Shown one piece after another: positions 12,960 through 32,266 of a stretch of DNA of 64,000 bases (position 1 is its first letter; each line of letters opens with the position of its first letter). The stretch spans positions 13,715 through 77,714 of the forward strand of contig CAYUWG010000006.1 of NCBI GenBank assembly GCA_964448285.1, written 5' to 3'. The stretch comes from an uncultured Chromatiales bacterium. GTDB lineage: Bacteria > Bacteroidota > Ignavibacteria > SZUA-365. The position numbers and the translations under genes were made by a program. The notes below the pieces were generated by a model. The model ran no database searches. It was not told the origin of the DNA and worked only from the letters and a program-made list of their open reading frames with translations.

Positions 12960-12962
12960 TCC

Positions 12963-14987: not shown

Positions 14988-15011
14988 CAGACAATTCAAA
15001 CCAAGGACTTT

Positions 15012-16214: not shown

Positions 16215-16233
16215 AATCATATCAGGAGTCTTT

Positions 16234-17559
16234 ATGGCAGAACAGAATCGCATCAACACCATCATCGTCGGAGCCGCAGGACGCGACTTCCACAATTTCA
16301 ACATGCTCTATCGCGACAACGAGCGTTACAACGTCGTCGCGTTCACGGCGAACCAGATCCCGAACATCGACGGAAGGAAATACCCCGCGTCGCTTGCGGG
16401 AAAGCTCTATCCCAAAGGCATTCCCATCCATAAGGAAGCGGAACTCGATGCGCTCATCGCAAAGCACGACGTTGAGGAGGTCGTCTTTTCGTACAGCGAC
16501 GTGGACTACGAGCACGTGATGCGCATCGGTGCCCGCGTGAATGCCGCTGGGGCGCATTTCAAAATGCTCGGCTCGACAAGGACCATGTTGAAAAGTTCGA
16601 AGCCGGTGATCGCCGTGTGTGCCGTTCGTACCGGTTGCGGGAAGAGCCAGACCACGAGGCGCGTCGCGAAACTTCTGCAGGAGATGGGAAAGAAAGTCGT
16701 TGCCGTGCGTCACCCGATGCCATACGGCGATCTCGCGAAGCAGGCGGTGCAGCGATTCGCTTCCGTTACAGATATGAAGAAGCACAAGTGCACCATCGAA
16801 GAAATGGAGGAATACGAACCGCACGTCGTGAGCGGAACCGTGATCTATGCCGGCGTGGATTACGAACGCATTCTTCGCGAAGCGGAGAAGGAAGCGGACG
16901 TGATCCTGTGGGACGGAGGCAACAACGACCTGCCGTTCTTCAAGCCGGACGTGCACATCGTCGTCACCGATCCTCACCGCGCAGGCGACGAACTGTACTA
17001 CTATCCCGGCGAAGCGAACCTGCGCATGGCCGACGTGGTTGTGATCAACAAGATCGACACGGCCGGACCTGAAGAGATTCACATTCTGCGGGACAACATC
17101 CGCTTCGCGAATCCGAAGGCCGTCGTCATCGATGCGGCCTCACCGATTCTCGTGAAGAACGCGGAGAAGATCGCCGGGAAGCGCGCACTGGTCGTTGAAG
17201 ACGGTCCGACGCTGACGCATGGCGAAATGAAATTCGGAGCGGGTGTGATCGCCGCACAAAAATTCGGCGCGAGCGAACTCGTCGATCCCCGCGCGTACGC
17301 AGTCGGCACGATCAAAGACACGTTCGCGAAGTATCCCGATATCGGCACGCTCCTCCCTGCGATGGGTTATGGCGACAAGCAGATCAAGGATCTCGAAAGC
17401 ACGATCAACAAAACGCCGTGCGACGTTGTCGTAATCGGAACGCCGATCGATCTTTCCCGCATCATTGAAATGAAAAAACCTGCCGTGCGCGTGACGTACG
17501 AACTTCAAGAGATCGGTGAGCCAAGCTTGAGGACGGTGTTAGGGAAGATGCAGAAATAG
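16234..17559 (+). CDS. P-loop NTPase of the COG2403 / cyclic-2,3-diphosphoglycerate-synthetase-like family (tentative)
   Basis: 441 aa. N-terminal Rossmann-like segment, then Walker A AVRTGCGKSQTT and Walker B-like ADVILWDGG. Its last ~20 codons are duplicated at 31979-32042. Confidence 0.55.
   Translation: MAEQNRINTIIVGAAGRDFHNFNMLYRDNERYNVVAFTANQIPNIDGRKYPASLAGKLYPKGIPIHKEAELDALIAKHDVEEVVFSYSDVDYEHVMRIGARVNAAGAHFKMLGSTRTMLKSSKPVIAVCAVRTGCGKSQTTRRVAKLLQEMGKKVVAVRHPMPYGDLAKQAVQRFASVTDMKKHKCTIEEMEEYEPHVVSGTVIYAGVDYERILREAEKEADVILWDGGNNDLPFFKPDVHIVVTDPHRAGDELYYYPGEANLRMADVVVINKIDTAGPEEIHILRDNIRFANPKAVVIDAASPILVKNAEKIAGKRALVVEDGPTLTHGEMKFGAGVIAAQKFGASELVDPRAYAVGTIKDTFAKYPDIGTLLPAMGYGDKQIKDLESTINKTPCDVVVIGTPIDLSRIIEMKKPAVRVTYELQEIGEPSLRTVLGKMQK
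17485..17548. repeat. Left copy of ~64-bp imperfect direct repeat (3' end of COG2403 gene); attL-like
   Basis: GTGCGCGTGACGTACGAACTTCA[A]GAGATCGGTGAGCCAAGCTTGAGGACGGTGTT[A]GGGAAGA recurs at 31979-32042 with 3-4 mismatches. Confidence 0.8.
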
Positions 17560-17678
17560 AGCGAGACCGAGGGTAACACTTTAGATTGGTATGCGAATGA
17601 CTTAAATCTAACTCTTTTCTGCGATTTTAAGATAAGACATCTCATTTCAAGACTTATTCAAGAAAAATAGAATGAGCC

Positions 17679-17708
17679 TTGACATTGACTCCGTCGATTT
17701 TCTATATT
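17679..17708 (+). promoter_or_regulatory. Candidate sigma70-like promoter (TTGACA-N18-TATATT) upstream of the first island gene
   Basis: TTGACA at 17679-17684, TATATT at 17703-17708, GGAG RBS at 17727-17730, ATG at 17739. Sits in AT-rich intergenic DNA. Confidence 0.35.
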
Positions 17709-17738
17709 TGTAATAGGTAATGGAAAACGGAGCTAAAC

Positions 17739-20327
17739 ATGAGCTTTTCTAACATCATCAAGCCACGGCCGGAAGTTCTTAAAAAAGATGGAATTGATAG
17801 CGTCATCGATATCGAGAATTTGCGTTCGAAGAGGTTAAAAGCAGTCGAAAGTAGGCCCAAGGACTTTTTCGATCTCACATATCCTACGAGCGACATCAGG
17901 TTTGTCGTAGAACATCTTCATCGAAGGTTCATGGGCAAAGAGGCTGGTGCAGGAACGTACTTGCTTGAAGGGTACAAAGGGAGTGGAAAATCTCATCTTG
18001 AATTGTTCGTGTACCATTTGCTCAATAGCCCAAATGATGCGCAGGAATGGCTGCTTCGAAACGATCTTGAGTGTGCGCTTCCAAAACAGCCGGTTACGGT
18101 TATTCGGAAATTCACCGATTTCCATATCGACACACTGTGGAACTGGATTTTTGACGAGTTGGGAGATCGGAAAAATATGGATCGCCCACCTGACTTGGAC
18201 CAATTTCGAAGAACACTGGCGGGTAGGCAGTTAATCCTGATTCTCGATGAATTGGAGATGGGTATCAAGAGCATTCCGAATGAGGCGAGCCGGGCACAAA
18301 ACCTCGCATTCATTCAAATGCTTAGCGAGGAGGCACAGAGATCGGAATCAGCCACGGTGACGGTGTTCGCATCCGTGTACGATTCAAACCAGGAAGCCGG
18401 GGCAACTCTTAAACGTGTCTCTCCGGTCAACATACGTTTCATGGAGCCGCAGGACAGAAGGAGAATCATTCAGCATAGATTGTTCGCTCAATTCGAAAAG
18501 CGTGAGACGAACCGGATAGATCAAGTCATCCAATCATATGTCAACGAATGGAAAAGGCATGATATCCAGGTTGATGAACGACACATCGAAAGCATGAGGG
18601 AGTCCTTTCCCTTCAGTCCTGAACTTCTTGATACAGTTTTGTACCGTGTTCCCGCAAAAGGTGGGTTTCAGGCGAACAGAGGAGCGCTCGGTCTTCTTGG
18701 AACGGTGGTTCGGCTAACACATAACAAAACCGATCTAATCACTACTGCGCATCTTGCTATCAGCGAACCTACGGTAAGAAATAAACTCGCCGACCTTGAT
18801 CCTGCCCAGAACTTCCTCGATTGCGCTGGCAGTGATTTCAATGATCTCAAAGAACTCAGTGTGGCTGAAGAAATCATTTCCAGTGTCCTTGTCGCATCAC
18901 TCGCGCCCGCTGGCCAGACCATCGGAATAACGGAGATGGAATTGAAGCGGCAAATCATCGAACCAGGGGATGACATCAATGTCTTCTCGAGTACGCTTCA
19001 TGCACTTGAAAAACTTGGGACCTACTTTCAACACCAAGAGGACAGATACTTTTTCGACACGCATGAGAAACCGAACGCCAAAGTGGAATATCGATCCCTA
19101 CGTATCGAAAGAGGCCGAGCGATCGACTATGCTTTGACAAAATGGAAGGTTGACCTTTTCAAAGATCCGGAAGCAGTAGTCTATCGTGATAGAGTTCAGG
19201 TTAACGAGGATCTTTCAATGAGGGACGCTAAGAGGATTAGGTTCGTCCTATCACCCTTTCGATTGAATGAAGATGAGAGAAGGAATGTCTTTCACGGTCA
19301 GCAGAACCAGAACATTATCCTACTCCTCGAACCGCGAACAACGACGTTCAATGCATTGGAGCACCCTGATATTATCAAATGGGGACAAAGGGCGCTTGCC
19401 GCCCAAGAGCTTATTCCCACAGCAGAATCAGACAGACGAAAGCACTATGAGAAGATTTTGGCGGAAGACACGAGATGGATCATCGATACGATCAAGCGGA
19501 CAGGGCTGCATCTGGTCTGGATACAGGACTATGGTGTCATGGAAGAGGAGAATCTTGGAAACGCGTCGACACGTGACGATGTCCTGAAACAATTGCGCGA
19601 CACAATATTTCCTCGTCAGCGCTTCGAGGAACATATCAAGGACCATATCAAGGATTTCTTCGGACAAACGGTTCGCTCCGTCGATGCAATATACAGGAAG
19701 ACGCTTGGCTACCCGATCAGAACAGCTGATTCAACTATCCCTGATGCTATTCGGGAATTATGCAAGTCTGGTGTCCTCGGTCTTATTCATGAACGAGCGA
19801 AAGCATGCGGAACGACCTTCGACCTATCATCGATGGAACTACTCGATGCGACGATTTCAGAGCCATTTGAGGAAGATCAGCCCGCAAAGATGCCCTTCAC
19901 TGAAGGTCTGGGATTCAAGGATCATACGGATACTAAATCGACTACGATCATCGATAAGTCACCCATTTACGATTCTCCTGTGTATTCGTACGAAACGCTC
20001 CAGTTACCGTTCACAACATCAATTCACTCACTACGACAGGGAATCGCAAGTCGTCTGGAGAATCACCCACAGTCGCAGATACACAAGGCAACGTTTTACA
20101 TTCTCATGAAGCATTCGGAGGTTGAACTTTCTTCTTTATCTGCTGCGGTTCGCGGCTCTCTGTCAGGAAAAGGTAGTATTGTCGCTGACATCACTATCAG
20201 TAGGGTTGGCGTCTTTTCCAAAGCTGCGATCGAACAGATGGTTGAGCAACTCCCGTCCTTCGAAGGCGCTCAGTACGGAATGGAATGCAAGATTGAAACT
20301 GTCAGGGAGACCGTATCAAGTGAATGA
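17739..20327 (+). CDS. P-loop ATPase, DUF499/BrxC(PglY)-like defence ATPase (tentative family assignment)
   Basis: 862 aa. Walker A LLEGYKGSGKSH near residue 80 and Walker B LILILDELE near residue 170, followed by a long non-enzymatic C-terminal region as in BREX BrxC-type ATPases. First gene after the AT-rich junction. Confidence 0.65.
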   Translation: MSFSNIIKPRPEVLKKDGIDSVIDIENLRSKRLKAVESRPKDFFDLTYPTSDIRFVVEHLHRRFMGKEAGAGTYLLEGYKGSGKSHLELFVYHLLNSPNDAQEWLLRNDLECALPKQPVTVIRKFTDFHIDTLWNWIFDELGDRKNMDRPPDLDQFRRTLAGRQLILILDELEMGIKSIPNEASRAQNLAFIQMLSEEAQRSESATVTVFASVYDSNQEAGATLKRVSPVNIRFMEPQDRRRIIQHRLFAQFEKRETNRIDQVIQSYVNEWKRHDIQVDERHIESMRESFPFSPELLDTVLYRVPAKGGFQANRGALGLLGTVVRLTHNKTDLITTAHLAISEPTVRNKLADLDPAQNFLDCAGSDFNDLKELSVAEEIISSVLVASLAPAGQTIGITEMELKRQIIEPGDDINVFSSTLHALEKLGTYFQHQEDRYFFDTHEKPNAKVEYRSLRIERGRAIDYALTKWKVDLFKDPEAVVYRDRVQVNEDLSMRDAKRIRFVLSPFRLNEDERRNVFHGQQNQNIILLLEPRTTTFNALEHPDIIKWGQRALAAQELIPTAESDRRKHYEKILAEDTRWIIDTIKRTGLHLVWIQDYGVMEEENLGNASTRDDVLKQLRDTIFPRQRFEEHIKDHIKDFFGQTVRSVDAIYRKTLGYPIRTADSTIPDAIRELCKSGVLGLIHERAKACGTTFDLSSMELLDATISEPFEEDQPAKMPFTEGLGFKDHTDTKSTTIIDKSPIYDSPVYSYETLQLPFTTSIHSLRQGIASRLENHPQSQIHKATFYILMKHSEVELSSLSAAVRGSLSGKGSIVADITISRVGVFSKAAIEQMVEQLPSFEGAQYGMECKIETVRETVSSE

Positions 20328-20346
20328 TAAGCGGAATATCTTCAAC

Positions 20347-21288
20347 ATGATGCTGCAGCCGGGAGACCGACTGCCTGCAATTCAGATGTGGTTGAAGCAA
20401 TATGTGTGGTCCATTGACCGCTTTTCAGCGATGCCACCGGAAGACTATCTGAGAGACGGTGAGGCATGTGTTTTCAACGTGGAGGAGTTGATGCTTATTG
20501 CGGCGCCGAGGGTTTATGATGAGCTTTATGGTGCTTCCGAACGAGCAAAGCGAATCGAACAGCAGATCGCACCTGACGAACCAACCGCATTCGTCGTGCT
20601 TGATGGTGCCTCGATTCGGGAGATTCCCTTGTTCGAACGTTTAGCTTCCGAAACGGGCTTCCAGATAGTGGAATCAAGCTACAACATTTCAGCTCTCCCA
20701 AGTGATACTCTTTCTTTCATCGTTCAACGTATCACGAGCAAAGAAGTAGCTCCAGTCCAACTTCCAACGAGAAAGGAACTTATAGAACGAGGATGGAGCG
20801 TGTGGTATTACGACGCTGCGATTCGGAATCATGAGCTGCCGAACGATGGAAGACATCTCCTTCTCTGGTCTGCATTTCCGGACGCGACGTATGGGAATTT
20901 TGAAGCCAGGGCTGCGAGCCATTTCACAGGGATCGTCACGCTGTATGAGACAGTCTGGAAGAACGTAGTGCAGGCGATACCGAACGGATACAGGATCATT
21001 CTGACCAGCGACCACGGATATGCGTATTTCGGGACCGGGCTGGATTCGAATCATACAGTTTCGGGTCCGCGAATTCTGGAACAAGCACGTTACAAGTTTT
21101 TTTCAGACAGTGACGACTTTCCTGAACCTGCAATCGACCTCTACACACTCCCAGAAAAGCGACTCGCTGTCCTGAAAGGTCGGGTGAAGAACAGGCCACA
21201 GGGACCGATGGGGAATCGCGTGTATAGGCACGGCGGAATGTCGTTGATGGAAATGCTCACACCATGGCTCGTACTGAAAAGAATGTGA
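20347..21288 (+). CDS. PglZ-like alkaline-phosphatase-superfamily protein
   Basis: Motifs FVVLDGASIRE (metal-binding Asp strand), ILTSDHGYAYFG (DHG) and YRHGGMSLMEMLTPW (HGG.S..E..P) are the alkaline-phosphatase-superfamily core as seen in PglZ. An alternative GTG start at 20320 overlaps the upstream stop. Confidence 0.65.
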   Translation: MMLQPGDRLPAIQMWLKQYVWSIDRFSAMPPEDYLRDGEACVFNVEELMLIAAPRVYDELYGASERAKRIEQQIAPDEPTAFVVLDGASIREIPLFERLASETGFQIVESSYNISALPSDTLSFIVQRITSKEVAPVQLPTRKELIERGWSVWYYDAAIRNHELPNDGRHLLLWSAFPDATYGNFEARAASHFTGIVTLYETVWKNVVQAIPNGYRIILTSDHGYAYFGTGLDSNHTVSGPRILEQARYKFFSDSDDFPEPAIDLYTLPEKRLAVLKGRVKNRPQGPMGNRVYRHGGMSLMEMLTPWLVLKRM

Positions 21289-21316
21289 TGAAACCGATGA
21301 ACGAAAAGGAACCATC

Positions 21317-21583
21317 ATGAAAACACTCCAGCATCAGTCGAAGAAAGTAAAGATCGGAACGGTTCTCGATGAGGACATCCTCCGAAGATTGAAAGAACGA
21401 GCCGCACGTGAAGGGCGCACTATCGCCGCGCTCATCGAGGAAGCCGTCCTCAAGTACGAACAGGAGGAAGCGTTTGCGCGTGAGATGCGGCTCCGCGCTC
21501 TTGAATCAGTCTTTGCCGTCAAATTCAATATCTCGCGGGAGGACTTCGAGGCGATCATGGAAGAGGATTACTACGACCAATGA
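21317..21583 (+). CDS. Ribbon-helix-helix (CopG/VapB-like) antitoxin
   Basis: 88 aa. ILRRLKERAAREGRTIAALIEEAV is a typical RHH fold sequence. Overlaps the downstream PIN gene by 4 bp. Confidence 0.7.
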   Translation: MKTLQHQSKKVKIGTVLDEDILRRLKERAAREGRTIAALIEEAVLKYEQEEAFAREMRLRALESVFAVKFNISREDFEAIMEEDYYDQ

Positions 21584-22089
21584 ACCTGGACGACGTGAGA
21601 AATAGGGACGTGATCATTCTCGACGCGAATATCTTCGTGTATGGAGCGCTGGAGATGTCCGAGCAATGTATGCGTTTGCTCCGGCGATGCGCGGCGCGGG
21701 ATGTAACCGGTGTCGTTGGGTTGCAACAGATGGCGGAGGTCATGCACCGCCTCATGATGATCGAAGCGCGTGAAAACAAATGGACGCCGGGAGCGAATCC
21801 GGCCAAGACCCTTGCCAACCACCCGGATCGCGTGCGCTCGCTCAACAGGTACGAGCAGGCAGTCAAGGGATTCTTTGCAAGTGGCTTTCGATTTGAAACG
21901 CTCATGAAGGAGGATTTCGGGATCGCGCTCTCGTTGCAGCGGCAATTCGGGCTGATGACGAACGATGCACTTCTGGCTGCCATGGCGGAAAGACTCCGCA
22001 TCCAATCCATTGCGAGCGCGGATACGTCATTCGCGAACGTGCGAGGGATGATGCTGTATCAACCGGATGACGTTGTATCAACCGGATGA
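21580..22089 (+). CDS. PIN-domain ribonuclease toxin (VapC-like)
   Basis: 169 aa. N-terminal VIILDANIFVY (first acidic residue) and later MTNDALLAA motif typical of PIN domains. Confidence 0.75.
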   Translation: MNLDDVRNRDVIILDANIFVYGALEMSEQCMRLLRRCAARDVTGVVGLQQMAEVMHRLMMIEARENKWTPGANPAKTLANHPDRVRSLNRYEQAVKGFFASGFRFETLMKEDFGIALSLQRQFGLMTNDALLAAMAERLRIQSIASADTSFANVRGMMLYQPDDVVSTG

Positions 22090-22111
22090 TATGAAATAAG
22101 ACAGGCAGACA

Positions 22112-22531
22112 ATGAAGGAAAAAGAGGAAATATATCTTGAGGAACGAAGGATGCTGGTTCAGGCGGAGCAAGATGCTTATCAGCAGTTCGATAAAACGAT
22201 CATTACAATTGCAAGCGGAGGATTAGGACTCTCACTTCTTTTCTTGAAAGATATTCTCGACAAGGATCAAATCACTAGTCAATGGCTCCTGATTGTCTCA
22301 TGGTGTTCATTCATCCTTTCGATTCTTTCTACTCTCTTGTCATTTATGGGAAGCCAGCGCGCCTTTAGAAGACAAATAGAAATTACCGATGAATTGTATT
22401 CAAAGAATCAGACTCATGATTCTAATAACAAGCCAGCAAAAGCCACTGAGAAGTTGAACTACTTTTCGATTGGTTTCCTGATCTTAGCGATTATTCTCCT
22501 CGTCATTTTTGTTTCACTAAACTTTCAATGA
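22112..22531 (+). CDS. Hypothetical membrane protein (AT-rich cassette)
   Basis: 139 aa. Charged coiled N-terminus followed by 3 TM helices. Local GC about 38% versus about 55% in surrounding genes. Confidence 0.45.
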   Translation: MKEKEEIYLEERRMLVQAEQDAYQQFDKTIITIASGGLGLSLLFLKDILDKDQITSQWLLIVSWCSFILSILSTLLSFMGSQRAFRRQIEITDELYSKNQTHDSNNKPAKATEKLNYFSIGFLILAIILLVIFVSLNFQ

Positions 22532-22540
22532 GGTTTTATC

Positions 22541-22744
22541 ATGTCTGAAGACAAAAACGAAATAATTACAGTTGCAAATGGTAGGGTTCCATCTCTCTCG
22601 CACCCTCTTCTCAGCGATGCTAAAAAACCGCGTCTTGAGGGAGCCGTCCCTCCAAAACCTCCGGTGCCGCTGAAACCGACAACAAGCGAACCACAACCGG
22701 AGGGTGGAAGTCAGGGAAGCCCGCCGAAGGAGAAGAAGGAATGA
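22541..22744 (+). CDS. Hypothetical small Pro-rich protein
   Basis: 67 aa (PPKPPVPLKPTTSEPQPEGG). Overlaps the next ORF by 4 bp, with a GAGG-like RBS. Could be spurious. Confidence 0.3.
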   Translation: MSEDKNEIITVANGRVPSLSHPLLSDAKKPRLEGAVPPKPPVPLKPTTSEPQPEGGSQGSPPKEKKE

Positions 22745-23379
22745 CTTTGAGAAAAGGATTTGACCTCTATGAATACACAGGGATTCTCGTCCCTGGTTAC
22801 TTACTGTTGGTAGGAATAGCTCTTTTGCATCCTGAAGCGAAATCCTTCCTATTGTCTGTTAATTTCACAGTTGGCCATTTTGGGCTTTCGGTACTCCTTG
22901 CGTATTCCGCAGGGCATCTTCTACAAGCACTGGGAAACATGATCGAATATCTGTGGTGGGAACTCTATGGTGGTATGCCTACCGATTGGGTAAGAACTGG
23001 AAAGCATTTCCTCCTTGCACCAGATCAGATCGTAATGCTGAAGAACAAGATGTCAGCTATACTTGGACTTTCGGTCAAGAATGAACTGCAAGAATATTCG
23101 AAGGAGGAATGGTCCTCTATAATCCGGCAAGTATATGCGGCAATTGATGGAGATAACCGTTCAAAGCGTGTCGATATCTTCAACGGTCAATATGGCTTGA
23201 ACAGAGGTATAGGAGCTTCCTTTCTATTCCTTCTTGTTGTCACGTTGCTTTACTATGGGCTCTCCTCGTGGAGTATCCAGATTTGGCTATGTGCAGGATT
23301 CGTTGTTTCGATTTACAGGATGCATCGGTTTGGTAGGAATTATGGACACTCTCTTTTCATGTCTTTTATTATCGAATAA
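22741..23379 (+). CDS. Hypothetical polytopic membrane protein (AT-rich cassette)
   Basis: 212 aa with 4-5 TM segments. No recognisable family. Confidence 0.45.
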   Translation: MTLRKGFDLYEYTGILVPGYLLLVGIALLHPEAKSFLLSVNFTVGHFGLSVLLAYSAGHLLQALGNMIEYLWWELYGGMPTDWVRTGKHFLLAPDQIVMLKNKMSAILGLSVKNELQEYSKEEWSSIIRQVYAAIDGDNRSKRVDIFNGQYGLNRGIGASFLFLLVVTLLYYGLSSWSIQIWLCAGFVVSIYRMHRFGRNYGHSLFMSFIIE

Positions 23380-23482
23380 TAACAGTTTGTACTGAGCGTG
23401 GAAGATTTGTATAATTGCTTCTTATGTTGTATATTCATAATATGAAACAAATATTTATTACCCAAAATACAGGAGATAAGAA

Positions 23483-24424
23483 ATGAACATTCCAAAAAAG
23501 CGAACACGATTTCGTGCATATCAACTAAAGACTGAGGGGTCCTCATTTTCGTACTTTGATGGAGACGCATTTACACTTATCGAAGCGCGCTGCAATGAAC
23601 ATAATTGTTCGAATATATGTGATGAATTGGGGGAATGCGACAAGAGTAGAATTGATTCTCTTCATATTACGAGTTGGGATGAAGACCATTGTGCTTTTAA
23701 GGAGTTAGAGGAAATACTCGACACCTTCACGCCAAAAAGGATTGAATATCCTGGCTACGAACCGAAAACTGAAAATGGTAAGCATTGTTTAAGTGCAATT
23801 TATTCATACAATAAGAAAGAATGGAGATGGATAGTAAAAGTAAATCCAGAATATATTCGCGGTTTGAAGAAGGCGGAAGCGCTTGGCTATCAAGACATTT
23901 TGTACAATCCATTGGTTATCATGGAGACGTCGAACGACAATTCGACTATTAAATTCTTTCGAAAGGGATCATTTAACGTAATAAGCCTCGGTGATGTTGA
24001 GAGCCCGATGATTCGCTCGAGACTTGAAAGGCTCAGTATTTTCAATTCTGAGATAGACGTCATGATATTATCCCATCACGGCGCAGATAATGGCTTTACA
24101 ACCAAATCATTTTTAAGCAAAACAAAACCAACTGTGGCTATAGCTTCAGCTAATTACGAAAATGAATATGAACATCCAAGAAAGAGTATTCGAAACGATC
24201 TGTACGAATTGAACATACCAATCTTTACGTCTAAAACGGGAGATGTGATAATCGAATCCACAGGAGATCACACAGGCTCATATAGAGTCACAAACTTAAA
24301 GAGTGATTCGACGGATATATCGTCGCAAAGGGATTTTAAATCAAAGAAGGCATCCAAATTGACTCATAATGCGGATTCGATTCGAAATCATTATAATCCC
24401 AAGAGACCGTTTTATAGGTTCTGA
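23483..24424 (+). CDS. MBL-fold metallo-hydrolase, ComEC-C-terminal-like (possible nuclease)
   Basis: 313 aa. DVMILSHHGADNGFTTKSFLSKTKPTVAIASANYENEYEHPRKSIRNDLYELNIPIFTSKTGDVIIE parallels the ComEC/MBL pattern V.HHGS......FL..V.P..A.IS.G..N.YGHP. AT-rich. Confidence 0.5.
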   Translation: MNIPKKRTRFRAYQLKTEGSSFSYFDGDAFTLIEARCNEHNCSNICDELGECDKSRIDSLHITSWDEDHCAFKELEEILDTFTPKRIEYPGYEPKTENGKHCLSAIYSYNKKEWRWIVKVNPEYIRGLKKAEALGYQDILYNPLVIMETSNDNSTIKFFRKGSFNVISLGDVESPMIRSRLERLSIFNSEIDVMILSHHGADNGFTTKSFLSKTKPTVAIASANYENEYEHPRKSIRNDLYELNIPIFTSKTGDVIIESTGDHTGSYRVTNLKSDSTDISSQRDFKSKKASKLTHNADSIRNHYNPKRPFYRF

Positions 24425-24435
24425 CTACTTACCCC

Positions 24436-24642
24436 ATGATCCGCGCCATCGAAGAGTATTTCCCCATCGTGGACATCAACCGCCTTGCGGTGCCGGAGCG
24501 AAATGCGTTCAAACCGATCTATCAGATGCACAAGGGGTTTGCGCGGCGTTCGGTTATGGTTTTTCGTACGATCCTGTTGGGCGCGATGAAACCTGTCAAC
24601 CCAGATATTATGGAGGAGTTCTACGGGACGGAGAGACGATGA
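24436..24642 (+). pseudogene. Decayed in-frame duplicate of the first ~65 codons of the DUF1156 methyltransferase gene
   Basis: MIRAIEEYFPIVDINRLAVPERNAFKPIYQMHKGFARR... versus MTRAIEEYFPIVDINRLAVPERNAFKPIYQMHKWFARR... at 25609. Roughly 85% nucleotide identity over ~190 bp (my manual alignment). Terminates at an ATGA overlap with the next gene. Confidence 0.7.
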
Positions 24643-24983
24643 AACGAAGCACATCCCAAAGAAAATCGCAACTCGAGCGCCTACCTCAATCGGTTCGTGA
24701 TATCTTCTGGGAATACGAAAAAGGGTCCATCTCATGGCAGAAGGACCGCGACCTCATCATCAAGAAAATCTTACATCACGGGTCGTGGGACGCCCTGTGT
24801 TGGATGAGGTCGGTCATCGATGACGAATCGCTTCGAACGTGGTTGATCGATCATGATGGTGCGGGTCTCGATGCGAAGCGATTGCGCTACTGGCAACTCA
24901 TCCTCAACCTGCCGGTGTCCAACGTGAACAAGTGGATTCAAACATACCGGGATAATCCCTGGAGCCGGAGGATGACGGGATGA
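24639..24983 (+). CDS. Small protein encoded upstream of and overlapping the AbiEii-type toxin gene; putative cognate antitoxin/regulator
   Basis: 114 aa (MKRSTSQRKSQLERLPQSVRDIFWEYEKGS...). Its start overlaps the stop of the methylase fragment and its stop overlaps the AbiEii start (ATGA). Family not recognised; shorter than classical AbiEi. Confidence 0.45.
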   Translation: MKRSTSQRKSQLERLPQSVRDIFWEYEKGSISWQKDRDLIIKKILHHGSWDALCWMRSVIDDESLRTWLIDHDGAGLDAKRLRYWQLILNLPVSNVNKWIQTYRDNPWSRRMTG

Positions 24984-25612
24984 AGATCCACGAGGAGGTA
25001 TTGTCGCCGCGGCAAAAGAACCTTGCCCGTCGCATCGGGCCGGCACTTTCCCGACAGGGTTTTTATCTCGCAGGTGGGACGGCATTGGCTCTCATGGTGG
25101 GACATCGGCATTCTGTTGACTTCGACTACTTCATCGACGATCCGATGAACGATCCTCAATCCGTCATCGAGACCTTGCGCAAGGTCGGTTGTAATCCTAT
25201 CGTGGAGATTCTGGAGAAAGGCACTGTTCACGTGACGTGGTCGAGCGTCAGGATGTCTTTCATTACGTACCGCTATCCGATGCTCCAGCCTTTCGTTGAA
25301 TGGAAAGAAGGTGGATGTCGGCTTGCTTCGCTGGACGATATCGCATGCATGAAGCTTTCCGCTCTTGCGCAACGTGGTTCGAAGAAAGACTTCATCGATG
25401 CATTCGCGCTGATCCGGAAACACAAACCGCTTTCGGATCTCCTGCAACTCTATCAAAAAAAATTCGATGTCTCTGAGATTGTTCATGTGCTCTATGGATT
25501 GAGCTATTTCGACGACGCAGACAAAGAGCGTTCACCCAGGATGCTGTGGGATGTCTCATGGAAAGAGATAAAGAAAAAGCTCACAGAACACGTAAGGAAC
25601 CTCTCCCCATGA
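24980..25612 (+). CDS. Nucleotidyltransferase of the AbiEii/AbiGii toxin family
   Basis: 210 aa. FYLAGGTALALMVGHRHSVDFDYF is the family's characteristic GG.AL..HR.S.D.D motif region. Stop overlaps the methylase start (ATGA). Confidence 0.7.
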   Translation: MKIHEEVLSPRQKNLARRIGPALSRQGFYLAGGTALALMVGHRHSVDFDYFIDDPMNDPQSVIETLRKVGCNPIVEILEKGTVHVTWSSVRMSFITYRYPMLQPFVEWKEGGCRLASLDDIACMKLSALAQRGSKKDFIDAFALIRKHKPLSDLLQLYQKKFDVSEIVHVLYGLSYFDDADKERSPRMLWDVSWKEIKKKLTEHVRNLSP

Positions 25613-28600
25613 CCCGCGCCATTGAAGAATACTTCCCCATCGTGGACATCAACCGCCTCGCGGTGCCGGAGCGCAATGCGTTCAAGCCGATCTACCAGAT
25701 GCACAAGTGGTTTGCGCGACGTTCGTCGTCGGTGTTTCGCGCGATACTGCTTGCGGCAATGAAGCCCGCCGGTATGGACATCATGAAGGAATTTTACCTG
25801 GATCACACGAACGATCCCGACACGAATGGGAAGGTGATACTCGACCCGTTCATGGGCGGTGGCACCACCGTCGTGGAGGCACTACGGCTTGGCTGCAACG
25901 TGATCGGCATCGACCTCAATCCCGTCGCGTGGTTCATCGTGAAGACGGAAGTGGAACCGGTGGACATCGACAGCTTGAAAGCCTCGTTCGAACGGCTCGC
26001 GAATCGCACAGTGGACTGGTCGGGCAAACCGCTGAAGGAAACACTGCTCGATCTGTACAAAACCGTGTGCCCGGGTTGCGGCGGTGAAGCGGATATCATC
26101 TACACGTTCTGGGTAAAATCCGCGCCCTGCACGACGGGAACTTGTAAAACGCAGACGCCGCTGTTTTCTGACTTCATCATCGCACAGAAGAAACCGTCCA
26201 TTCGGTACTCCCCTGACTGCACCTGTCCTTCCTGTGCGAAGGAATTCGACTGGGAGCGCGAACCCGCTTCGCTGATCGCTGAAGAAAAACTGATGGTGTC
26301 TGCGACGGCTTATTCCGCCGGTGATGGAAGGCAGAATGCACGATGGGCCTTTTCGGCTGACAAGAAAGTGACCTGTCCGTGGTGTAGGATGGATGTTAGG
26401 CCGAAACCCAAATCGCTCAAACTCAAACGCAAGAAGATTCCGCTCAATGTGTTGCTCTGCCCGCACTGCGAGGAAGTCTGGCAGTACCGTGGTGAGTTGC
26501 CGGATTCCGTTGCATGCCCGACGTGCGCACATGAATACGATCCAACGAAAGGCAACATCCCCGGCACGGGGAAGTTCATCTGTCGCGGCACGTGCAACGG
26601 CAACGTCGATACCGTGATTACCGCCATTCGCACGCTTCCTGAAGAAAGACTCTTGCCCATCCGCCTGTATGCGATGGAAGGCTACTGCCCCCGCTGTGCG
26701 AAAAAACCGGGCGGGAAAGAAACTCCGATGGTTGTTAACGAACCGATGTTCGAATATCAACCCTCTCCCGGTCACTCCGTGACACCCCTCTCCCGAACCG
26801 GGAGAGGGGACGGGGGTGAGGGTCTTCTCTGGAAAAACTCCGGCAAGTTCTTCAAGCGCGTTTCACCCGTTGACCTTGCCCGGTACCTGGAAGCAAGTTC
26901 TATCTGGCAGAGAGAGAAAAAGAATCTACCGCACCCGGTTTCCGAAATACCAGTCGGTGAAAAAACGAAGTCTGGCTTACATTCACATCACTACCGCTAT
27001 TGGTGGCAGATGTTCAATGACAGACAGTTGTTGGCGCTGAGCACGCTACTGAAAGGGATTGGGGAGGAGGGTGAGCAGGTAGCAAAGGAGATGTTATTAA
27101 CAGCGTTTTTCAGTGCGCTTGAGACAAGTAATTTGTTTACTAGATATCACTCTACGAGGTTTTTGTCCGCTGGAGTTTTTGCCCGTCATGATTACCAACC
27201 GAAGGTGACAATTTGCGAAAACAACGTCTGGGGTACGCTATATGGAAATCAAACATATAACAATACGTTTGAGAAGGTTATTGATGGAAAATCTTTCGCA
27301 CTTAATCCTACTGATCTAAAATATTGTGATGAAAAATATAAACCGATAGCTTCCCATGATTCACTTTCCAACCTCGAGCTGGATGAAAATGTCCTATTAA
27401 AAGCTAAATCATCAACCAATATGGATGAGATAGAAAACTCTTCCATAGAATTTGTTATTACAGATCCACCATACGCCGGCAATGTCAACTACGCGGAGTT
27501 GTCGGACTTCTTCTATGTCTGGCTTCGTCTCCTGCTGAAGGAGAAGTATCCGCAGTTTCTTCCGGAGTATGTGCCAAAGGCGGAGGAGATTATCGAGAAC
27601 AGAACGCGGGGAAAATCATCGAAGGACTTCAAGGAGGGACTCCGCGCCGTCTTCCGCGAAGGGCATCGCGTCTTGAAAGACGACGGATTGCTTGTATTCA
27701 CCTTCCATCACGCTGAAGGCTCTGCCTGGGAGGCACTGCTCGAATCGGTCTGTGAAGCGGGCTATTACATCGAAGCCGTGTATCCCATACACGGGGAGGC
27801 GGAGAACTCACTGCACCTGATGAACAACGAAGCCATCTCCTACGATCTCATACACGTCTGCAAGAAAGCAACCGCCCAGCAGACCTGGGCGAAGCGCTCC
27901 TGGGCAGGCGTACGGCACGATATCAGGAAGAGGGCACGCGAAGAAGCGAGGCTCATCGAGTCCGGCAGGTACGGCAACGAGCCACTCCCTGCTGCTGATA
28001 TCAACATTCTCCTCATCGGAAAATGCCTCGAGCTGTACAGCAAGCACTACAACCGCATCGTGGATCATGAAGACAAGCCGATACCTCTGCATCAGGCGTT
28101 GGAAGAAATCAAGATGCTCGTCGATCAGATCGTCGCGCGCGAGAAGCCGCTCCCGCCGGAACTCGAAGAGGGCGTCGATCCCGTCTCCTACGTCTATCTC
28201 ACTGCTCTTGCCGGTCAACGGGAAATCCAGAGCGATCACGTCAGCAAGCAGACGCGCGGCATCATCGAAACGTCCGAGTTGAAGGAACATGGCCTGCTCA
28301 TCAAAGGTCGCGCGAAGCGCGGACGTACGTTCGAGATCAAACAACCGGTTGAGCGCCTCAACGACCTGAAGAAGAAGTTCTACGACGACGGGGTGTTGAC
28401 GCAACTCCCGCTGTTCGGTGAGAACGGTTCACCGCTGCCCAAGGGCCTGCTCTTCGTGGATTGCGTGCAACTGCTGTTGGGTCTCGCGGAGAACGGTGAG
28501 AACGTGCTACCGTGGCTCGACCGTCTTCGTGGTTTGCGTCCGCAACTTCGCGCCGCGCTTTCATATCTGCATGACCGGAATATCTTCACCGTTCCCTCCA

Positions 28601-28647
28601 GGAAAATCCTCTCCCTCATCGACGAGCGTACGCTCTTCAATACGTGA
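25609..28647 (+). CDS. DUF1156-type adenine-specific DNA methyltransferase with multiple Zn-ribbon inserts
   Basis: 1013 aa from ATG 25609; the track's upstream extension is unlikely. N-terminus MTRAIEEYFPIVDINRL. Motif I DPFMGGGTTVVEA lies before motif IV FVITDPPYAGNV. Five Cys-x-x-Cys pairs lie between them (CPGCGG, CPSC, CPWC, CPHC, CPTC). Confidence 0.8.
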   Translation: MTRAIEEYFPIVDINRLAVPERNAFKPIYQMHKWFARRSSSVFRAILLAAMKPAGMDIMKEFYLDHTNDPDTNGKVILDPFMGGGTTVVEALRLGCNVIGIDLNPVAWFIVKTEVEPVDIDSLKASFERLANRTVDWSGKPLKETLLDLYKTVCPGCGGEADIIYTFWVKSAPCTTGTCKTQTPLFSDFIIAQKKPSIRYSPDCTCPSCAKEFDWEREPASLIAEEKLMVSATAYSAGDGRQNARWAFSADKKVTCPWCRMDVRPKPKSLKLKRKKIPLNVLLCPHCEEVWQYRGELPDSVACPTCAHEYDPTKGNIPGTGKFICRGTCNGNVDTVITAIRTLPEERLLPIRLYAMEGYCPRCAKKPGGKETPMVVNEPMFEYQPSPGHSVTPLSRTGRGDGGEGLLWKNSGKFFKRVSPVDLARYLEASSIWQREKKNLPHPVSEIPVGEKTKSGLHSHHYRYWWQMFNDRQLLALSTLLKGIGEEGEQVAKEMLLTAFFSALETSNLFTRYHSTRFLSAGVFARHDYQPKVTICENNVWGTLYGNQTYNNTFEKVIDGKSFALNPTDLKYCDEKYKPIASHDSLSNLELDENVLLKAKSSTNMDEIENSSIEFVITDPPYAGNVNYAELSDFFYVWLRLLLKEKYPQFLPEYVPKAEEIIENRTRGKSSKDFKEGLRAVFREGHRVLKDDGLLVFTFHHAEGSAWEALLESVCEAGYYIEAVYPIHGEAENSLHLMNNEAISYDLIHVCKKATAQQTWAKRSWAGVRHDIRKRAREEARLIESGRYGNEPLPAADINILLIGKCLELYSKHYNRIVDHEDKPIPLHQALEEIKMLVDQIVAREKPLPPELEEGVDPVSYVYLTALAGQREIQSDHVSKQTRGIIETSELKEHGLLIKGRAKRGRTFEIKQPVERLNDLKKKFYDDGVLTQLPLFGENGSPLPKGLLFVDCVQLLLGLAENGENVLPWLDRLRGLRPQLRAALSYLHDRNIFTVPSRKILSLIDERTLFNT

Positions 28648-28656
28648 GGCAATGCC

Positions 28657-29079
28657 ATGTCCTACATACTCATAGAACACAACCATCTCTCACCGCCCCG
28701 CTTGGCAGGTCAGGGTTTTAAGGCAAACACGCACCGTATCGGATTTCTGGACTTCCTCCGTGAATTGGACAGGGAAGAATTTCCATTCCACGAAAGCAGT
28801 CACCTGCTTGTTGTTGGCCTTGAGGACGTACTGCTTTTTTCGCGTCCCCACATGCACTCCATTGCGTTAGACATCCGAAATCGATTGAAGCGTGTCGCGA
28901 ATGATTTTGAACGATGTCCTCATGTTCAAATCGTTTTCATGAAAGGGCATCTCGTCGCAGGCGCAGAGCTTCGGTTGGAAATGAAACCTGAGCCATTGCC
29001 TCTGCACCTCATTTTCGGAACGCCACAACGGATGGAAAACGGCTTCGTCTATTACTTGGCGCCGTTCAACCTGAGTTAA
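28657..29079 (+). CDS. Small conserved-looking protein between methylase and helicase (DUF3780-like position; unassigned)
   Basis: 140-aa ORF 10 bp after the methylase stop, same strand. No motif recognised. Confidence 0.45.
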   Translation: MSYILIEHNHLSPPRLAGQGFKANTHRIGFLDFLRELDREEFPFHESSHLLVVGLEDVLLFSRPHMHSIALDIRNRLKRVANDFERCPHVQIVFMKGHLVAGAELRLEMKPEPLPLHLIFGTPQRMENGFVYYLAPFNLS

Positions 29080-29115
29080 GTGGAATCAGAGTAGGAAAAG
29101 GATACAAGGACAGAT

Positions 29116-31971
29116 ATGAATACATCGGCGTTTACCGACAGAACATCGGAAAAGGGCACACCCTATAGTCCCGGCCAACGTGTCCGAGTAGCCGGACGAG
29201 AAGATCTCGGAATAGGCGAAGTGCTACGTGTGAGTGATATCTACGGCGTGTATCAGGCGGACATTATCTTTGAAACCAGTGGATTACGACGATTGGAAAG
29301 CTTCCCTGTCGAGCGTCTCGAGCATGCCCCCGACTTATGGGAGCGATTGAAGAAGGGAATGTTCGACGATCCGAATGACGTACTCTTCAAACAACTCGCG
29401 TTTCAGTTTCCATTGCAAAACAAGGGAGGTCAACTCTCGAACAGTCGAACGCAATTGTTACCTCATCAGATTCTGCTGACTCGGGACGTGGTTGCATCAC
29501 ACCGTCGTCGCTATCTCATCGCTGATGAAGTGGGGCTGGGGAAAACGATCGAGATCGGCATGATCCTTAGGGAACTGGAGTCCCGGCGTGAAGCGTCACG
29601 CATGTTGATCATTGCGCCGGCAGGCCTGATCAAAAACTGGCAACAGGAATTACGGGATGCATTTCGACTGCATTTCGAAATTCTTGGGATCGACTTCATG
29701 GACCACGGCTCAACAACGTGGGAAATGAAAAGCAAGGTGATCGTTTCCATCGATACGATCAAGCGCAGCCCGAGGCTCGATCGTTTGCTTGCGGGTCCTC
29801 GTTGGGACGTGATCGTTTTCGATGAAGCCCACCATTTGAGTCGCAATCGGTATGGAAAGAAAATCGTCCCAACTCAAAACTATCGTCTTGCCGAATCCCT
29901 TCGTTCTCACACGAGGGATTTCCTTCTCCTTTCTGCAACACCCCATCAGGGAAACACCTATCAGTTCTGGTCGCTCATCCAACTCTTGAACGATTCGCTG
30001 TTCGATTCCGAAGAGGCCATGATCCAGCATCGAGGGCTTTTGAATCAGGTCATGATTCGTCGAACGAAACGGGAGGTAACGGATCGTCACGGGAATCCTA
30101 TTTTCATGCGTCGTCAGGTTCATACAGAACGCTTTCTGCAATCCGCACGGGAGCGAATGTTCTATGAGAAGCTTACGGAATACCTCAAGGAGGGGTACTC
30201 CGTTGCCCGGATCGGTGAAACCAAAGTGACGACAGAGGAACGCGCGATCGGGTTTGTCATGACGACGTTTCAGAAGATCATGTCCTCCAGCATTCGTGCT
30301 ATCCGGCAGGCATTGCGTCGAAGATTGCTCGTATTGCTCATCCGCCATTATATGGAATTAGAGCAGAAGAGATCGAAGCGTGGGCCTGACGAGACTATAG
30401 ATCGGAAGATTCTGGAAGTGCAGGATGAAATGCGCATGATTACTTCACATATCCTTGGCATTGATAATATCGCTGCCAATACAGGCGACATCGATGCCTT
30501 CATAGCGCAGACCAGACAAAAGGTGAGTCGCAAATTTCTCGTCGAAGAAAGCACACTGTGGTCCCTTGACGCTGACGAAGAGGCAGAGGAAGAACTCTAT
30601 GCCACGGTGAATATTCCCGATGAGATTCGGAAAGTCCGTTCGCTCATCTCCGTTATTCCTGACGGTCGGGATAGGAAATTTGAAACGCTCATCAACGCAA
30701 TCGAATCTATCCGGCAGGATAACCCATCCGAGAAGTTCGTGATCTTTACGCAGTACATCGAGACCTTGAAATTTCTCGAGGAGGAGTTGGGGGCGCTTTA
30801 TGGAAAACAAAAGATTGCGATCATTCGGGGTGGTCCACTGGAAAACAAGATTGAAGCTGTAGAAAGGTTCTGGGATGAACGAGGTGCACAATTCCTTATC
30901 TGCACATCGGCTGGTGGAGAAGGGATCAATCTTCAGATCGGAAGGATCCTTTTCAATTACGATTTGCCCTGGAATCCTATGGCGGTTGAACAACGCATAG
31001 GGCGCATTCACCGCTTCGGGCAGAAGGAAACGGCACAGATATATAATCTCATTGCCGAGGATACTGTAGAAGAACATATCTATGACCTTCTGAACAGGAA
31101 GTTGAGGGAAATTGCGTCACAAATCGGTAAAGTAGATTCATCCACAGGTGAGCCGCGTGAAGATTTCCGCAATGAAATACTGGGATTTCTCGGTTCCAGT
31201 CCCAGCTATCTCGATCTGTACAAGCGTGCTATCTTGGACAGAGATTACCGACGAACGGAACACGAGATTGAAGAAGCGATACGGAAAGCGCGTGAAGCAA
31301 GTGAAGCGCTTTCATCCTTCACTCAAGATCTCGATTCATTCGATTTGCGCGATTATCTCGCGATGGAGGGATCGTTTACACTTGATCACCTAATGGAATT
31401 CATTTTTCAAGCAGTACTCCGATTGGAAGGCGCTGTTCTTCCCCGTGATGAGTTTCATTCCATACAGACCCCTCCCAGTCTTTTACGGTACCCAAGTGTT
31501 TCCGCGAAGTATGACACTGTCACTTTCGATCGTGACGCGGCTATGAGAAAAAAGAGTGTCGAATTCCTTGGTCTCGGACATCCTTTCGTAGATGCAGTGG
31601 TAGAGCATTTTCAACAGTCTGCATTTCCAGGCGACGTGAGCTGTATCTCGCGTTTGAGTCATGAACAACCCTATACCGTCTTCCTTACCTTGATCACGAT
31701 CGGTTTGGAAGATGGTACTGTCCACCAGGAATTGAATCTCATGCGGGTAACACAATCGGGTGATGCACAGGTGTTGCCTGATCACTGGCTCTTTCAGCGG
31801 TTCGAACAGCGCGATTCCTTGTTCGAACCAGTGGAGAGTCTTTTTGATTTCATGTCAATCAGGATGTCGTACGAATCAGCAATCGGCGCTATTCTGACTC
31901 AAATGAAAGCATCAATGATCAATCCTATCAGCGCACGGTTGCGATTGCTTGGAGTATTGAACGTCGCTTGA
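29116..31971 (+). CDS. SNF2/RapA-family helicase (DISARM DrmD-like position)
   Basis: 951 aa. Motifs I LIADEVGLGKTIE, II VIVFDEAHHL, III LLLSATPHQG, V ICTSAGGEGINLQ and VI YDLPWNPMAVEQRIGRIHRFGQ. Confidence 0.88.
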   Translation: MNTSAFTDRTSEKGTPYSPGQRVRVAGREDLGIGEVLRVSDIYGVYQADIIFETSGLRRLESFPVERLEHAPDLWERLKKGMFDDPNDVLFKQLAFQFPLQNKGGQLSNSRTQLLPHQILLTRDVVASHRRRYLIADEVGLGKTIEIGMILRELESRREASRMLIIAPAGLIKNWQQELRDAFRLHFEILGIDFMDHGSTTWEMKSKVIVSIDTIKRSPRLDRLLAGPRWDVIVFDEAHHLSRNRYGKKIVPTQNYRLAESLRSHTRDFLLLSATPHQGNTYQFWSLIQLLNDSLFDSEEAMIQHRGLLNQVMIRRTKREVTDRHGNPIFMRRQVHTERFLQSARERMFYEKLTEYLKEGYSVARIGETKVTTEERAIGFVMTTFQKIMSSSIRAIRQALRRRLLVLLIRHYMELEQKRSKRGPDETIDRKILEVQDEMRMITSHILGIDNIAANTGDIDAFIAQTRQKVSRKFLVEESTLWSLDADEEAEEELYATVNIPDEIRKVRSLISVIPDGRDRKFETLINAIESIRQDNPSEKFVIFTQYIETLKFLEEELGALYGKQKIAIIRGGPLENKIEAVERFWDERGAQFLICTSAGGEGINLQIGRILFNYDLPWNPMAVEQRIGRIHRFGQKETAQIYNLIAEDTVEEHIYDLLNRKLREIASQIGKVDSSTGEPREDFRNEILGFLGSSPSYLDLYKRAILDRDYRRTEHEIEEAIRKAREASEALSSFTQDLDSFDLRDYLAMEGSFTLDHLMEFIFQAVLRLEGAVLPRDEFHSIQTPPSLLRYPSVSAKYDTVTFDRDAAMRKKSVEFLGLGHPFVDAVVEHFQQSAFPGDVSCISRLSHEQPYTVFLTLITIGLEDGTVHQELNLMRVTQSGDAQVLPDHWLFQRFEQRDSLFEPVESLFDFMSIRMSYESAIGAILTQMKASMINPISARLRLLGVLNVA

Positions 31972-31978
31972 TTCCCCA

Positions 31979-32042
31979 GTGCGCGTGACGTACGAACTTC
32001 AGGAGATCGGTGAGCCAAGCTTGAGGACGGTGTTGGAGAAGA
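31979..32042. repeat. Right copy of the ~64-bp imperfect direct repeat; displaced original 3' end of the COG2403 gene (attR-like)
   Basis: In the gene's frame it would encode ...VRVTYELQEIGEPSLRTVLEKKFGSE*, an alternative C-terminus to the ...TVLGKMQK* read at 17559. Confidence 0.8.
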
Positions 32043-32266
32043 AGTTCGGAAGCGAATAAGTGAGGTGATAGATAAAACAAGGCGGATCCTTTTACTCGAT
32101 CGAAGCCAGCAGATAAATCCCTGCGAGAATGACGAGCACTCCGCACACTCTGCGTAGCCATACCATGAAAGACGAAAAGGGCTGGACGCCTCCCTATGGT
32201 TAATGGAGAAGTGGCTCGCTACCGTCATCGATTCGATTTACATTGAGCAATGGATGATGGAAGCCA

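Follow-up and report, generated by a model that had tools for sequence, protein, structure and literature searches.

A strain-variable Hma defence island between 64-bp direct repeats at the 3' end of a COG2403-type gene in an uncultured bacterium

Defence systems that are not carried by phages, by plasmids, or on islands with an integrase also move between genomes, by routes that are still poorly understood. The closest described pattern is "insertion with long target duplication," which has been found for type I to IV restriction-modification (R-M) units (Nobusato et al. 2000, Gene 259:99; Furuta et al. 2010, PMC2853133). In the published cases, an insert of less than 20 kb without mobility genes is bracketed by repeats of more than 30 bp with few mismatches, and the empty site holds one copy (PMC2853133). 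These repeats often span the stop or start codon of the neighbouring gene, so that the gene survives; one example is a 46-bp repeat with 44 to 45 of 46 positions identical, which overlaps the 3' end of a gene (PMC2853133). Furuta et al. suggested a link to double-strand breakage as well as a cycle of insertion, amplification, and release via the repeats, with experimental support for amplification alone (PMC2853133). Here, we describe a locus that resembles this pattern in a 64,000-nucleotide stretch of DNA (hereafter the window) from an uncultured Chromatiales bacterium (GTDB lineage Bacteria; Bacteroidota; Ignavibacteria; SZUA-365), taken from contig CAYUWG010000006.1 of assembly GCA_964448285.1 (positions 13,715 to 77,714, forward strand). 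In the window, an island built around Hma, a BREX-related defence system, lies between two imperfect copies of a 64-bp direct repeat at the 3' end of a COG2403-type gene.

The likeness to R-M units inserted with long target duplication extends to several features. The unit contains a methylase gene and is shorter than 20 kb (14,430 bp between the copies), the repeats are imperfect and longer than 30 bp (64 bp, 61/64 identical), and a related genome, represented by the contigs L086 and L172, holds an empty site with one copy. The repeat also spans the stop codon of the flanking gene, which stays intact, and no mobility genes were found in or beside the unit when all ORFs (open reading frames) of the island and the larger ORFs of the window were scanned. 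The locus differs from the published cases in its cargo, which is Hma/BREX-related rather than type I to IV and is larger and nested; in its host, an uncultured FCB-group bacterium known from metagenomes only; in its junction, which was mapped to 5 bp; and in its downstream repeat copy, the differences of which are mainly synonymous. It thereby extends the pattern from classical R-M units to a BREX-related system and to an uncultured member of the FCB group. On balance, we lean towards the reading that the Hma island was inserted without a dedicated recombinase, by insertion with long target duplication. Hma has been described before as a defence system, and the mode of insertion follows a known pattern whose mechanism is unexplained; this locus is a further and unusually well resolved example of it.

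The two copies of the repeat lie on the forward strand at positions 17485-17548 (copy 1, attL-like) and 31979-32042 (copy 2, attR-like), 14,494 bp apart from start to start. Ungapped alignment shows, from 5' to 3', 23 identical bases, A in copy 1 against G in copy 2 at position 24, 32 identical bases, A against G at position 57, G against A at position 59, and a final GAAGA; beyond it, past repeat position 64, the copies diverge and similarity is gone. In copy 1, the three diagnostic positions are 17508, 17541, and 17543. The coordinates and the order of 23 matches, one mismatch, 32 matches, and decay had been reported in a preliminary description of this DNA, and the alignment bears them out. 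With up to three mismatches allowed, the 32-mer and the 23-mer each occur twice in the window, and 100 dinucleotide-preserving shuffles yielded no match to the repeat blocks, none being expected by chance.

The same description took copy 1 to be the actual end of the COG2403 gene and copy 2 to encode a slightly different C terminus in the same frame, and both points proved correct. The gene occupies positions 16234-17559 of the forward strand (441 amino acids [aa]), and copy 2, which begins 7 nt past the stop codon of the helicase gene (29116-31971), reads ...VRVTYELQEIGEPSLRTVLEKKFGSE* in the COG2403 frame. Relative to the target allele, copy 2 carries two synonymous changes (CAA to CAG at position 24 and TTA to TTG at position 57) and one Gly-to-Glu replacement (GGG to GAG at position 59), and both Gly and Glu are found at this last residue within the COG2403 family. 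The possibility that copy 2 lies inside a separate conserved gene, which the preliminary description had named as a ground for rejecting a displaced gene end, was also examined. The sole ORF over copy 2, which lies at 31899-32228 on the minus strand and also covers the 3' end of the helicase gene, has no family match and would be destroyed in the strain with the empty site.

An empty site, for which the preliminary description had proposed looking in related genomes, was found in a strain that is 99% identical to the window strain. Contig L086 (SRR26868045, 7,163 bp) matches window positions 11740-17548 with its positions 1-5809 at 99.1% identity and window positions 31979-33389 with its positions 5746-7163 at 97.7% identity (blastn). 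A contig from a second run, L172 (SRR26868044), has the same junction between the COG2403 gene and the flank at 32.05 kb; the runs with the empty site are SRR26868043-45. In both contigs, there is a single repeat copy and no island, and the COG2403 gene runs straight into the right flank. The 31-mers of L086 and L172 across TTAGGGAAGAAGTT do not exist in the occupied form and are not derivable from it, so these contigs represent real reads of an empty site. Because a 99%-identical strain carries the unoccupied site with one repeat copy, the 14,494 bp (14,430 bp of inserted DNA at 17549-31978 plus one copy) are, on the sequence evidence, a strain-variable insertion into the 3' end of the COG2403 gene that is real and recent. 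With occupied and empty alleles within one species at 99% identity, the locus offers a clean natural example.

L086 and L172 were reached by a look-up of the neighbouring aminotransferase, which retrieved Logan contigs from several runs. An exact-protein look-up of the 441-aa COG2403 product gave no match, directly or via P0001; a scan of a genome collection with COG2403 returned relatives of at most 73% identity only, without synteny downstream of the gene; and codon-degenerate DNA patterns of VTYELQEIGEPSLRTV had no match in viral or JGI metagenome contigs. For the occupied allele, the k=31 Logan assemblies from at least five runs all break at the shared 32-mer (the island-bearing runs are SRR22452313, SRR23136762, SRR23136763, SRR23136764, and SRR5011273): the island contig spans 17511-32032, the left flank ends at 17538-17540, and the right flank starts at 32005. 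These breakpoints fit a repeat that is present twice in one genome, and they confirm the duplication independently of the submitted assembly. Contigs of k=31 that break at the 32-mer carry no information on circular forms, and a 14,522-bp Logan contig considered as a candidate circle was rejected, its ends (17511 and 32032) being those of the k=31 graph at the 32-bp repeat.

Comparison of strains yielded further observations near the island. Contig L085 is identical to window positions 9481-17540 yet shows 76 differences in 5922-9480, a mosaic that, as judged from these alignments, points to strains of this species having recently exchanged homologous DNA near the island. The 240 bp to the left of the island show no difference between the window strain and L086. 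The most diverged stretch between them is window 32043-32230 against L086 5810-5996, where about 190 bp contain one 6-bp indel and 8 substitutions.

Three-way alignment of the empty site with the two copies resolves the junction. The empty site equals copy 1 at 64/64 positions, including A24, A57, and G59, and then continues with the tail of copy 2, AGTTCGGAAGCGAATAA; the downstream copy matches the target at 61/64 positions. Since attR last differs from attB at position 59 and attL first differs from it at position 65, the exchange point is confined, in this alignment, to GAAGA at the 3' edge of the repeat (17544-17548, with 32038-32042). The junction sequences are ...GTGTTAGGGAAGATGCAGAAATAG for attL, ...GTGTTGGAGAAGAAGTTCGGAAGCG for attR, ...GTGTTAGGGAAGAAGTTCGGAAGCG for attB, and ...GTGTTGGAGAAGATGCAGAAATAG for the reconstructed attP. 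An excised circle is predicted to carry GGACGGTGTTGGAGAAGA joined to TGCAGAAATAGAGCG, and homologous recombination within the 23-bp or 32-bp blocks is predicted to give hybrid junctions such as A...GGAGAAGAAGTT. Copy 2 departs from the target at three of the 59 bases that precede GAAGA; to the right of GAAGA, reconstructed attP and attB are dissimilar. No inverted-repeat core or dyad was found within 80 bp on either side of the reconstructed attB and attP by a search that asked for 8 or more matching pairs, allowed up to 2 mismatches, and limited the loop to 30 nt, although this is a weak test.

These results modify the earlier interpretation of the repeats as classical attL/attR integration into a gene 3' end, with the island supplying a replacement end. 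A discrete insertion at that place is upheld, but with its exchange point at the 3' and not the 5' edge of the repeat. The replacement applies only to the last codons, and the native end is not copy 2. In the empty-site strain, the native gene encodes 443 aa and ends in ...TVLGKKFGSE*, whereas the occupied form ends in ...TVLGKMQK*, so that KFGSE* is exchanged for MQK*. The island thus contributes 11 nt, three codons and a stop (17549-17559, TG CAG AAA TAG, reading ...K-MQK*), and the open frame is kept; the displaced native tail encoding ...KFGSE* lies at 32043-32059 and is identical to that of the empty-site strain. Because the extreme C terminus varies across the family, the function of the COG2403 product is probably retained after the insertion.

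Phage 21 and e14, which integrate in icd, and elements that target tRNA genes cross over where the identity block begins on its 5' side, and the mimic that they carry restores the gene. The island resembles these elements in its integration at a gene 3' end, in the supply of an alternative end, and in the displaced native fragment at the far side. It differs in that they supply the whole duplicated segment, whereas the island crosses over at the 3' edge, supplies 11 nt, and has no integrase. An identity block running from the crossover towards the gene end, such as would restore the gene, is absent. By this comparison, the layout is that of a long target duplication and not of a gene-restoring att site.

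Under the reading of long target duplication, a 14.5-kb defence island would have entered the last codons of the chromosomal COG2403 gene and left a 64-bp target duplication on both sides. In one variant, the gap at a long staggered break would have been filled in at the first insertion, and the non-functional copy would then have decayed. Alternatively, a circle may have entered by a Campbell-type single crossover, carrying one repeat copy acquired in an earlier host with a slightly different allele; this route would account for two of the three differences in the right copy being synonymous. We cannot separate these variants within this class, although the mainly synonymous differences of copy 2 hint that it passed through the allele of another host. 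Once in the chromosome, the repeat pair could serve host recombination, either for precise deletion of the island or for release of a circle and its re-entry into the empty site of a sister strain. Such a cycle of deletion and re-entry would maintain the presence/absence polymorphism.

Several points weigh against this reading. Hma has no classical restriction endonuclease gene, so the published combination of R and M genes is matched only loosely: the methylase HmaB is clear and a separate nuclease-like ORF with a metallo-beta-lactamase (MBL) fold is present, whereas restriction in Hma/BR (BREX-related) systems is assigned to the helicase/ATPase and not to a classical endonuclease gene. Moreover, long target duplication has never been demonstrated experimentally, and the label names a pattern and not a process (PMC2853133). 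A site-specific recombinase would likewise be expected to leave a junction that is restricted to 5 bp at one fixed place, and RecA-type re-entry would be expected to cross over in the 32-bp or 23-bp blocks and not in the last 5 bp. Duplication in place, for its part, requires 3 substitutions in 64 bp, where the neighbouring intergenic DNA, in which the two strains differ at 8 of 190 bp, predicts about 1.3 (Poisson P of about 0.14). Finally, the search covered 64 kb of the genome and its larger ORFs, and an integrase may lie elsewhere.

The strongest competing explanation is site-specific integration, in which the repeats would be attL and attR of a decayed island or of an integrase-less, cis-mobilisable element and a tyrosine or serine recombinase, now lost or encoded elsewhere, would have acted at or next to GAAGA. 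We hold it to be a substantial possibility, if a less probable one than long target duplication, because 64 kb of the genome was examined. The target is the 3' end of a conserved gene, the reading frame of which is preserved, the boundaries are precise, and the sister strain has a clean empty site. The 5-bp exchange interval lies outside the longest blocks of identity, which fits fixed cleavage better than general recombination. Furthermore, integrase-less elements flanked by att sites are known, namely the CIMEs (cis-mobilisable elements) (ICEberg 2.0, PMC6323972; review, PMC5704250). The CIMEs of Streptococcus share with this island repeats at the 3' end of a housekeeping gene, the lack of an internal integrase, and possible mobilization in trans (PMC6323972, PMC5704250). 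Unlike the island, for which no cognate integrase, related element, or core symmetry was found, CIMEs derive from and adjoin families of integrative and conjugative elements whose integrase is known and whose core is short and conserved.

The search for a recombinase bears most directly on this explanation. Recombinase and transposase families were absent from the ORFs of the island by Pfam, PADLOC, and PHROGs, as the preliminary description had stated for tyrosine and serine recombinases. The roughly 45 larger ORFs of the window that were scanned yielded no recombinase; neither did those scanned between about 17 kb upstream and about 14 kb downstream, nor the gene calls and precomputed Pfam annotations for 5922-17540. 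There is also no room for an integrase pseudogene, with 190 bp between copy 1 and the first gene and 7 bp between the last gene and copy 2. The 59 bp of homology lie on a side of the crossover where they do not restore the gene, and the dissimilarity of attP and attB to the right of GAAGA, together with the lack of dyad symmetry, likewise speaks against site-specific exchange. Recurrence of the site gave no support either, with no related element, second gene end, or recurrent integrase among 80 COG2403 loci, 80 Hma loci, and 132 neighbours. More specifically, there was no second copy of the gene end within 10 kb of flank in the 80 COG2403 relatives, no integrase family matched by at least two of the 132 COG2403 downstream neighbours, which are housekeeping genes, and no COG2403 fragment beside Hma in the 80 related loci. 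Megablast of the island against phage and plasmid collections gave no match apart from one 87-bp hit. Public read sets with both alleles make the mechanism testable, as fixed-site against homology-driven recombination.

A bolder extension of long target duplication makes the Hma unit itself the mobile agent: its own enzymes, or breaks that it provokes, would make long staggered cuts, the repeats would permit excision as a circle and re-entry at the same gene end, and a nested 193-nt duplication within the island would be a second product. We consider this proposition improbable. If true, it would amount to a recombinase-free "life cycle" of defence systems, such as Kobayashi's group hypothesised for R-M units, where it was never demonstrated.

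The nested direct repeat (24432-24624 and 25605-25797) is 193 nt long with 80% identity overall and about 91% over the first 110 nt. It brackets an AbiE cassette, with a truncated methylase 5' end upstream and the intact methylase gene after the cassette. The repeat begins with the start codon of the methylase gene, and the right arm is the first 190 nt of the HmaB gene. Because 8 of the 10 differences in the first 110 nt are synonymous, one arm is best read as deriving from a functional, diverged methylase gene. A duplicated methylase start was absent from all 39 related loci in which the methylase start is present. In this reading of the arms, the nested repeat shows that gene-end duplications accompany recombinase-free gain of cassettes in the island, and it supports events of the circle-entry type, with a diverged donor allele. 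The locus thus combines junction resolution to 5 bp, the lack of a visible recombinase, and a second, nested gene-end duplication.

Less probable still is classical gene-restoring integration with crossover at the 5' edge, in which copy 1 and the whole 75-bp gene end would be borne by the element, copy 2 would be native, and the empty-site strain would differ naturally or have lost the island. This is the textbook layout, with an identity block from the crossover to the gene end, and the end encoded by copy 2, ...LEKKFGSE*, is typical of the family (compare ...LEKKFGK* in the Anaerolineae homologues L076 and L042). In addition, L081, from the nearest other species, also has CAG at the position-24 codon. 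However, the mimic of the element would have to match the allele of the island-free strain at 64/64 positions, and the host lineage would need 3 changes in 64 coding bases against about 1% gene-wide (Poisson P of about 0.004). Otherwise, a secondary deletion would be required whose crossover fell in the 5-bp GAAGA and not in the 32-bp block.

An assembly artefact or chance repeat, with the island being a separate replicon or misjoined via a shared k-mer, is very improbable: although short-k assemblies all break at the 32-mer and cannot prove linkage themselves, a misjoin at shared sequence would give one copy and not two that differ in their flanks, what lies next to the helicase stop codon at copy 2 is no more than an 80-bp gene fragment, the breakpoints are identical in at least five runs, and the repeat is far beyond chance (no match in 100 shuffles). 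A DNA transposon was considered and rejected, as there is no transposase, no terminal inverted repeats pair the ends of the island, and the duplication is 64 bp in length against a short 2 to 15 bp. To our knowledge, 64 bp is far longer than any target duplication made by a transposase. A tRNA or tmRNA gene as the target was likewise rejected, none being present in the window.

Analysis of the cargo identifies a DUF499-centred, BREX-related Hma system (ATPase, DUF1156 methylase, and SNF2 helicase) with an RHH-PIN pair, AbiE, and a nuclease-like gene. Hma was recently reclassified among the DUF499-centred BR systems (PMC12839542). As in the described Hma/BR systems (PMC12839542; PMC11232893), the trio of DUF499 ATPase, DUF1156 methyltransferase, and SNF2 helicase is found in one operon, and the gene order is that of 80 related metagenome Hma loci, namely ATPase, partner, (RHH-PIN), methylase, DUF8076, and helicase. 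Because this order is common to the 80 loci, the Hma core can be taken to belong together. The locus differs from these systems in the extra 3.5 kb held between its PIN and methylase genes. The likeness to Hma concerns the cargo alone and is silent on how the island moved. The preliminary description had called everything between the repeats defence-type cargo; the ORFs of the island are of this type, except that some are without known function.

All island genes are on the forward strand. A sigma-70-like promoter, TTGACA-18-TATATT (11/12, 17679-17708), lies upstream of the DUF499 gene and agrees, as a consensus match only, with the earlier claim of promoter-like DNA there; terminator and promoter scans around copy 2 found nothing. 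The first gene (17739-20327) encodes an HmaC/DUF499-type AAA+ ATPase of 862 aa (PADLOC HmaC, 2.7e-19; DUF499, 3e-17) that is conserved in relatives. It is followed by the 313-aa partner gene of this Hma subfamily (20347-21288), which is supported by a gene call in L082, has a weak PADLOC match to PglZ (E of about 2e-4), and adjoins HmaC in most related loci at 34 to 50% identity; its product had no match among solved structures. The RHH antitoxin (21317-21583) and PIN toxin (21580-22089) genes come next (Pfam RHH_1, 9.8e-6; PIN, 4.5e-8). A pair of this kind occupies the same position, after the partner gene, in about 20 of 80 related Hma loci (among L092-L171) at 33 to 63% identity. The RHH-PIN pair may be, and probably is, an integral component of this Hma subfamily and not a hitch-hiker.

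Three small ORFs follow (22112-22531, 22541-22744, and 22741-23379), which probably encode membrane proteins (Csx27-like, 5e-5) and are absent from related Hma loci. The gene at 23483-24424 encodes a putative nuclease of 313 aa with an MBL fold that is like the ComEC C-terminal domain and LmuA/PDC-M48B (PADLOC, PHROGs), with a sequence match in the PDB to the ComEC nuclease domain (1.9e-5). As a candidate recombinase, this product was rejected, its matches in PADLOC, PHROGs, and PDB being MBL-fold/ComEC-like. The truncated copy of the methylase 5' end, which is the left arm of the nested repeat, contains a 68-aa ORF (24436-24642) and matches a PHROG for DNA methyltransferase. The AbiE-type cassette (24639-25612) consists of a DUF6922 gene (24639-24983) and an AbiEii nucleotidyltransferase gene (24980-25612; Pfam, 5.2e-7 and 3.5e-15, respectively). 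HmaB, a DUF1156 N6-adenine DNA methyltransferase of 1012 aa, is encoded at 25609-28647 (Pfam N6_N4_Mtase and DUF1156; PADLOC HmaB, 3.5e-39). It is separated by a gene for a small DUF8076 protein (28657-29079), conserved between the methylase and helicase genes by Pfam and synteny, from that for the HmaA/BrxH-like SNF2 helicase of 951 aa (29116-31971; Pfam SNF2-rel_dom and Helicase_C; PADLOC BrxHI, 3e-105, and HmaA, 3.9e-96).

In related loci, the PIN gene (L094, 5991-6502; L096, 4245-4756) is directly followed by the methylase gene. The 3.5 kb of extra cargo between these genes in the window (22090-25608) comprises the small ORFs, the MBL-fold gene, and AbiE, and locus L098 likewise has a DUF6922/AbiEii pair in this gap. 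From these arrangements, the gap between the PIN and methylase genes looks like a variable slot for embedded defence cargo.

The COG2403-type product is a predicted GTPase or cyclic 2,3-diphosphoglycerate synthase-like protein by the ORF list and its homologues, which occur in many phyla at 60 to 82% identity under the source names predicted GTPase or cyclic 2,3-diphosphoglycerate synthase. Its gene closes a conserved, arginine-type cluster (window 11958-17559) that contains genes for an ornithine carbamoyltransferase (OTCase)-like protein, an amino-acid kinase, a second OTCase-like protein, and a class-III aminotransferase. Many relatives instead carry their amino-acid kinase and OTCase genes on the downstream side of COG2403. 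This conserved gene neighbourhood suggests that the GTPase-like protein is functionally linked to arginine or carbamoyl-phosphate metabolism. The placement of the host in the FCB group is based on genes upstream of the island that are 75% identical to those of an Ignavibacteriaceae metagenome-assembled genome and on a T9SS sorting domain encoded elsewhere in the window. The nearest other species (P0002/L081, 82% identity) has a different gene downstream of COG2403.

The first gene of the right flank (32309-33007, forward strand) lies directly downstream of COG2403 in the empty-site strain. It encodes 232 aa in the window and 191 aa in L086 (6082-6657), with a stop-codon polymorphism at window 32882. 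Farther downstream, the window contains a tandem duplication of about 2.5 kb (51150-51449/53639-53938 and 52171-52344/54674-54847, with arms 90% and 98% identical, respectively) that spans the paralogous ORFs 51143-52156 and 53626-54615. Of the 98%-identical arms, one falls in the gap that follows 52400-53620, which encodes a protein whose tail is a T9SS sorting domain, and the other at the 3' end of the uroporphyrinogen decarboxylase gene (54664-55842).

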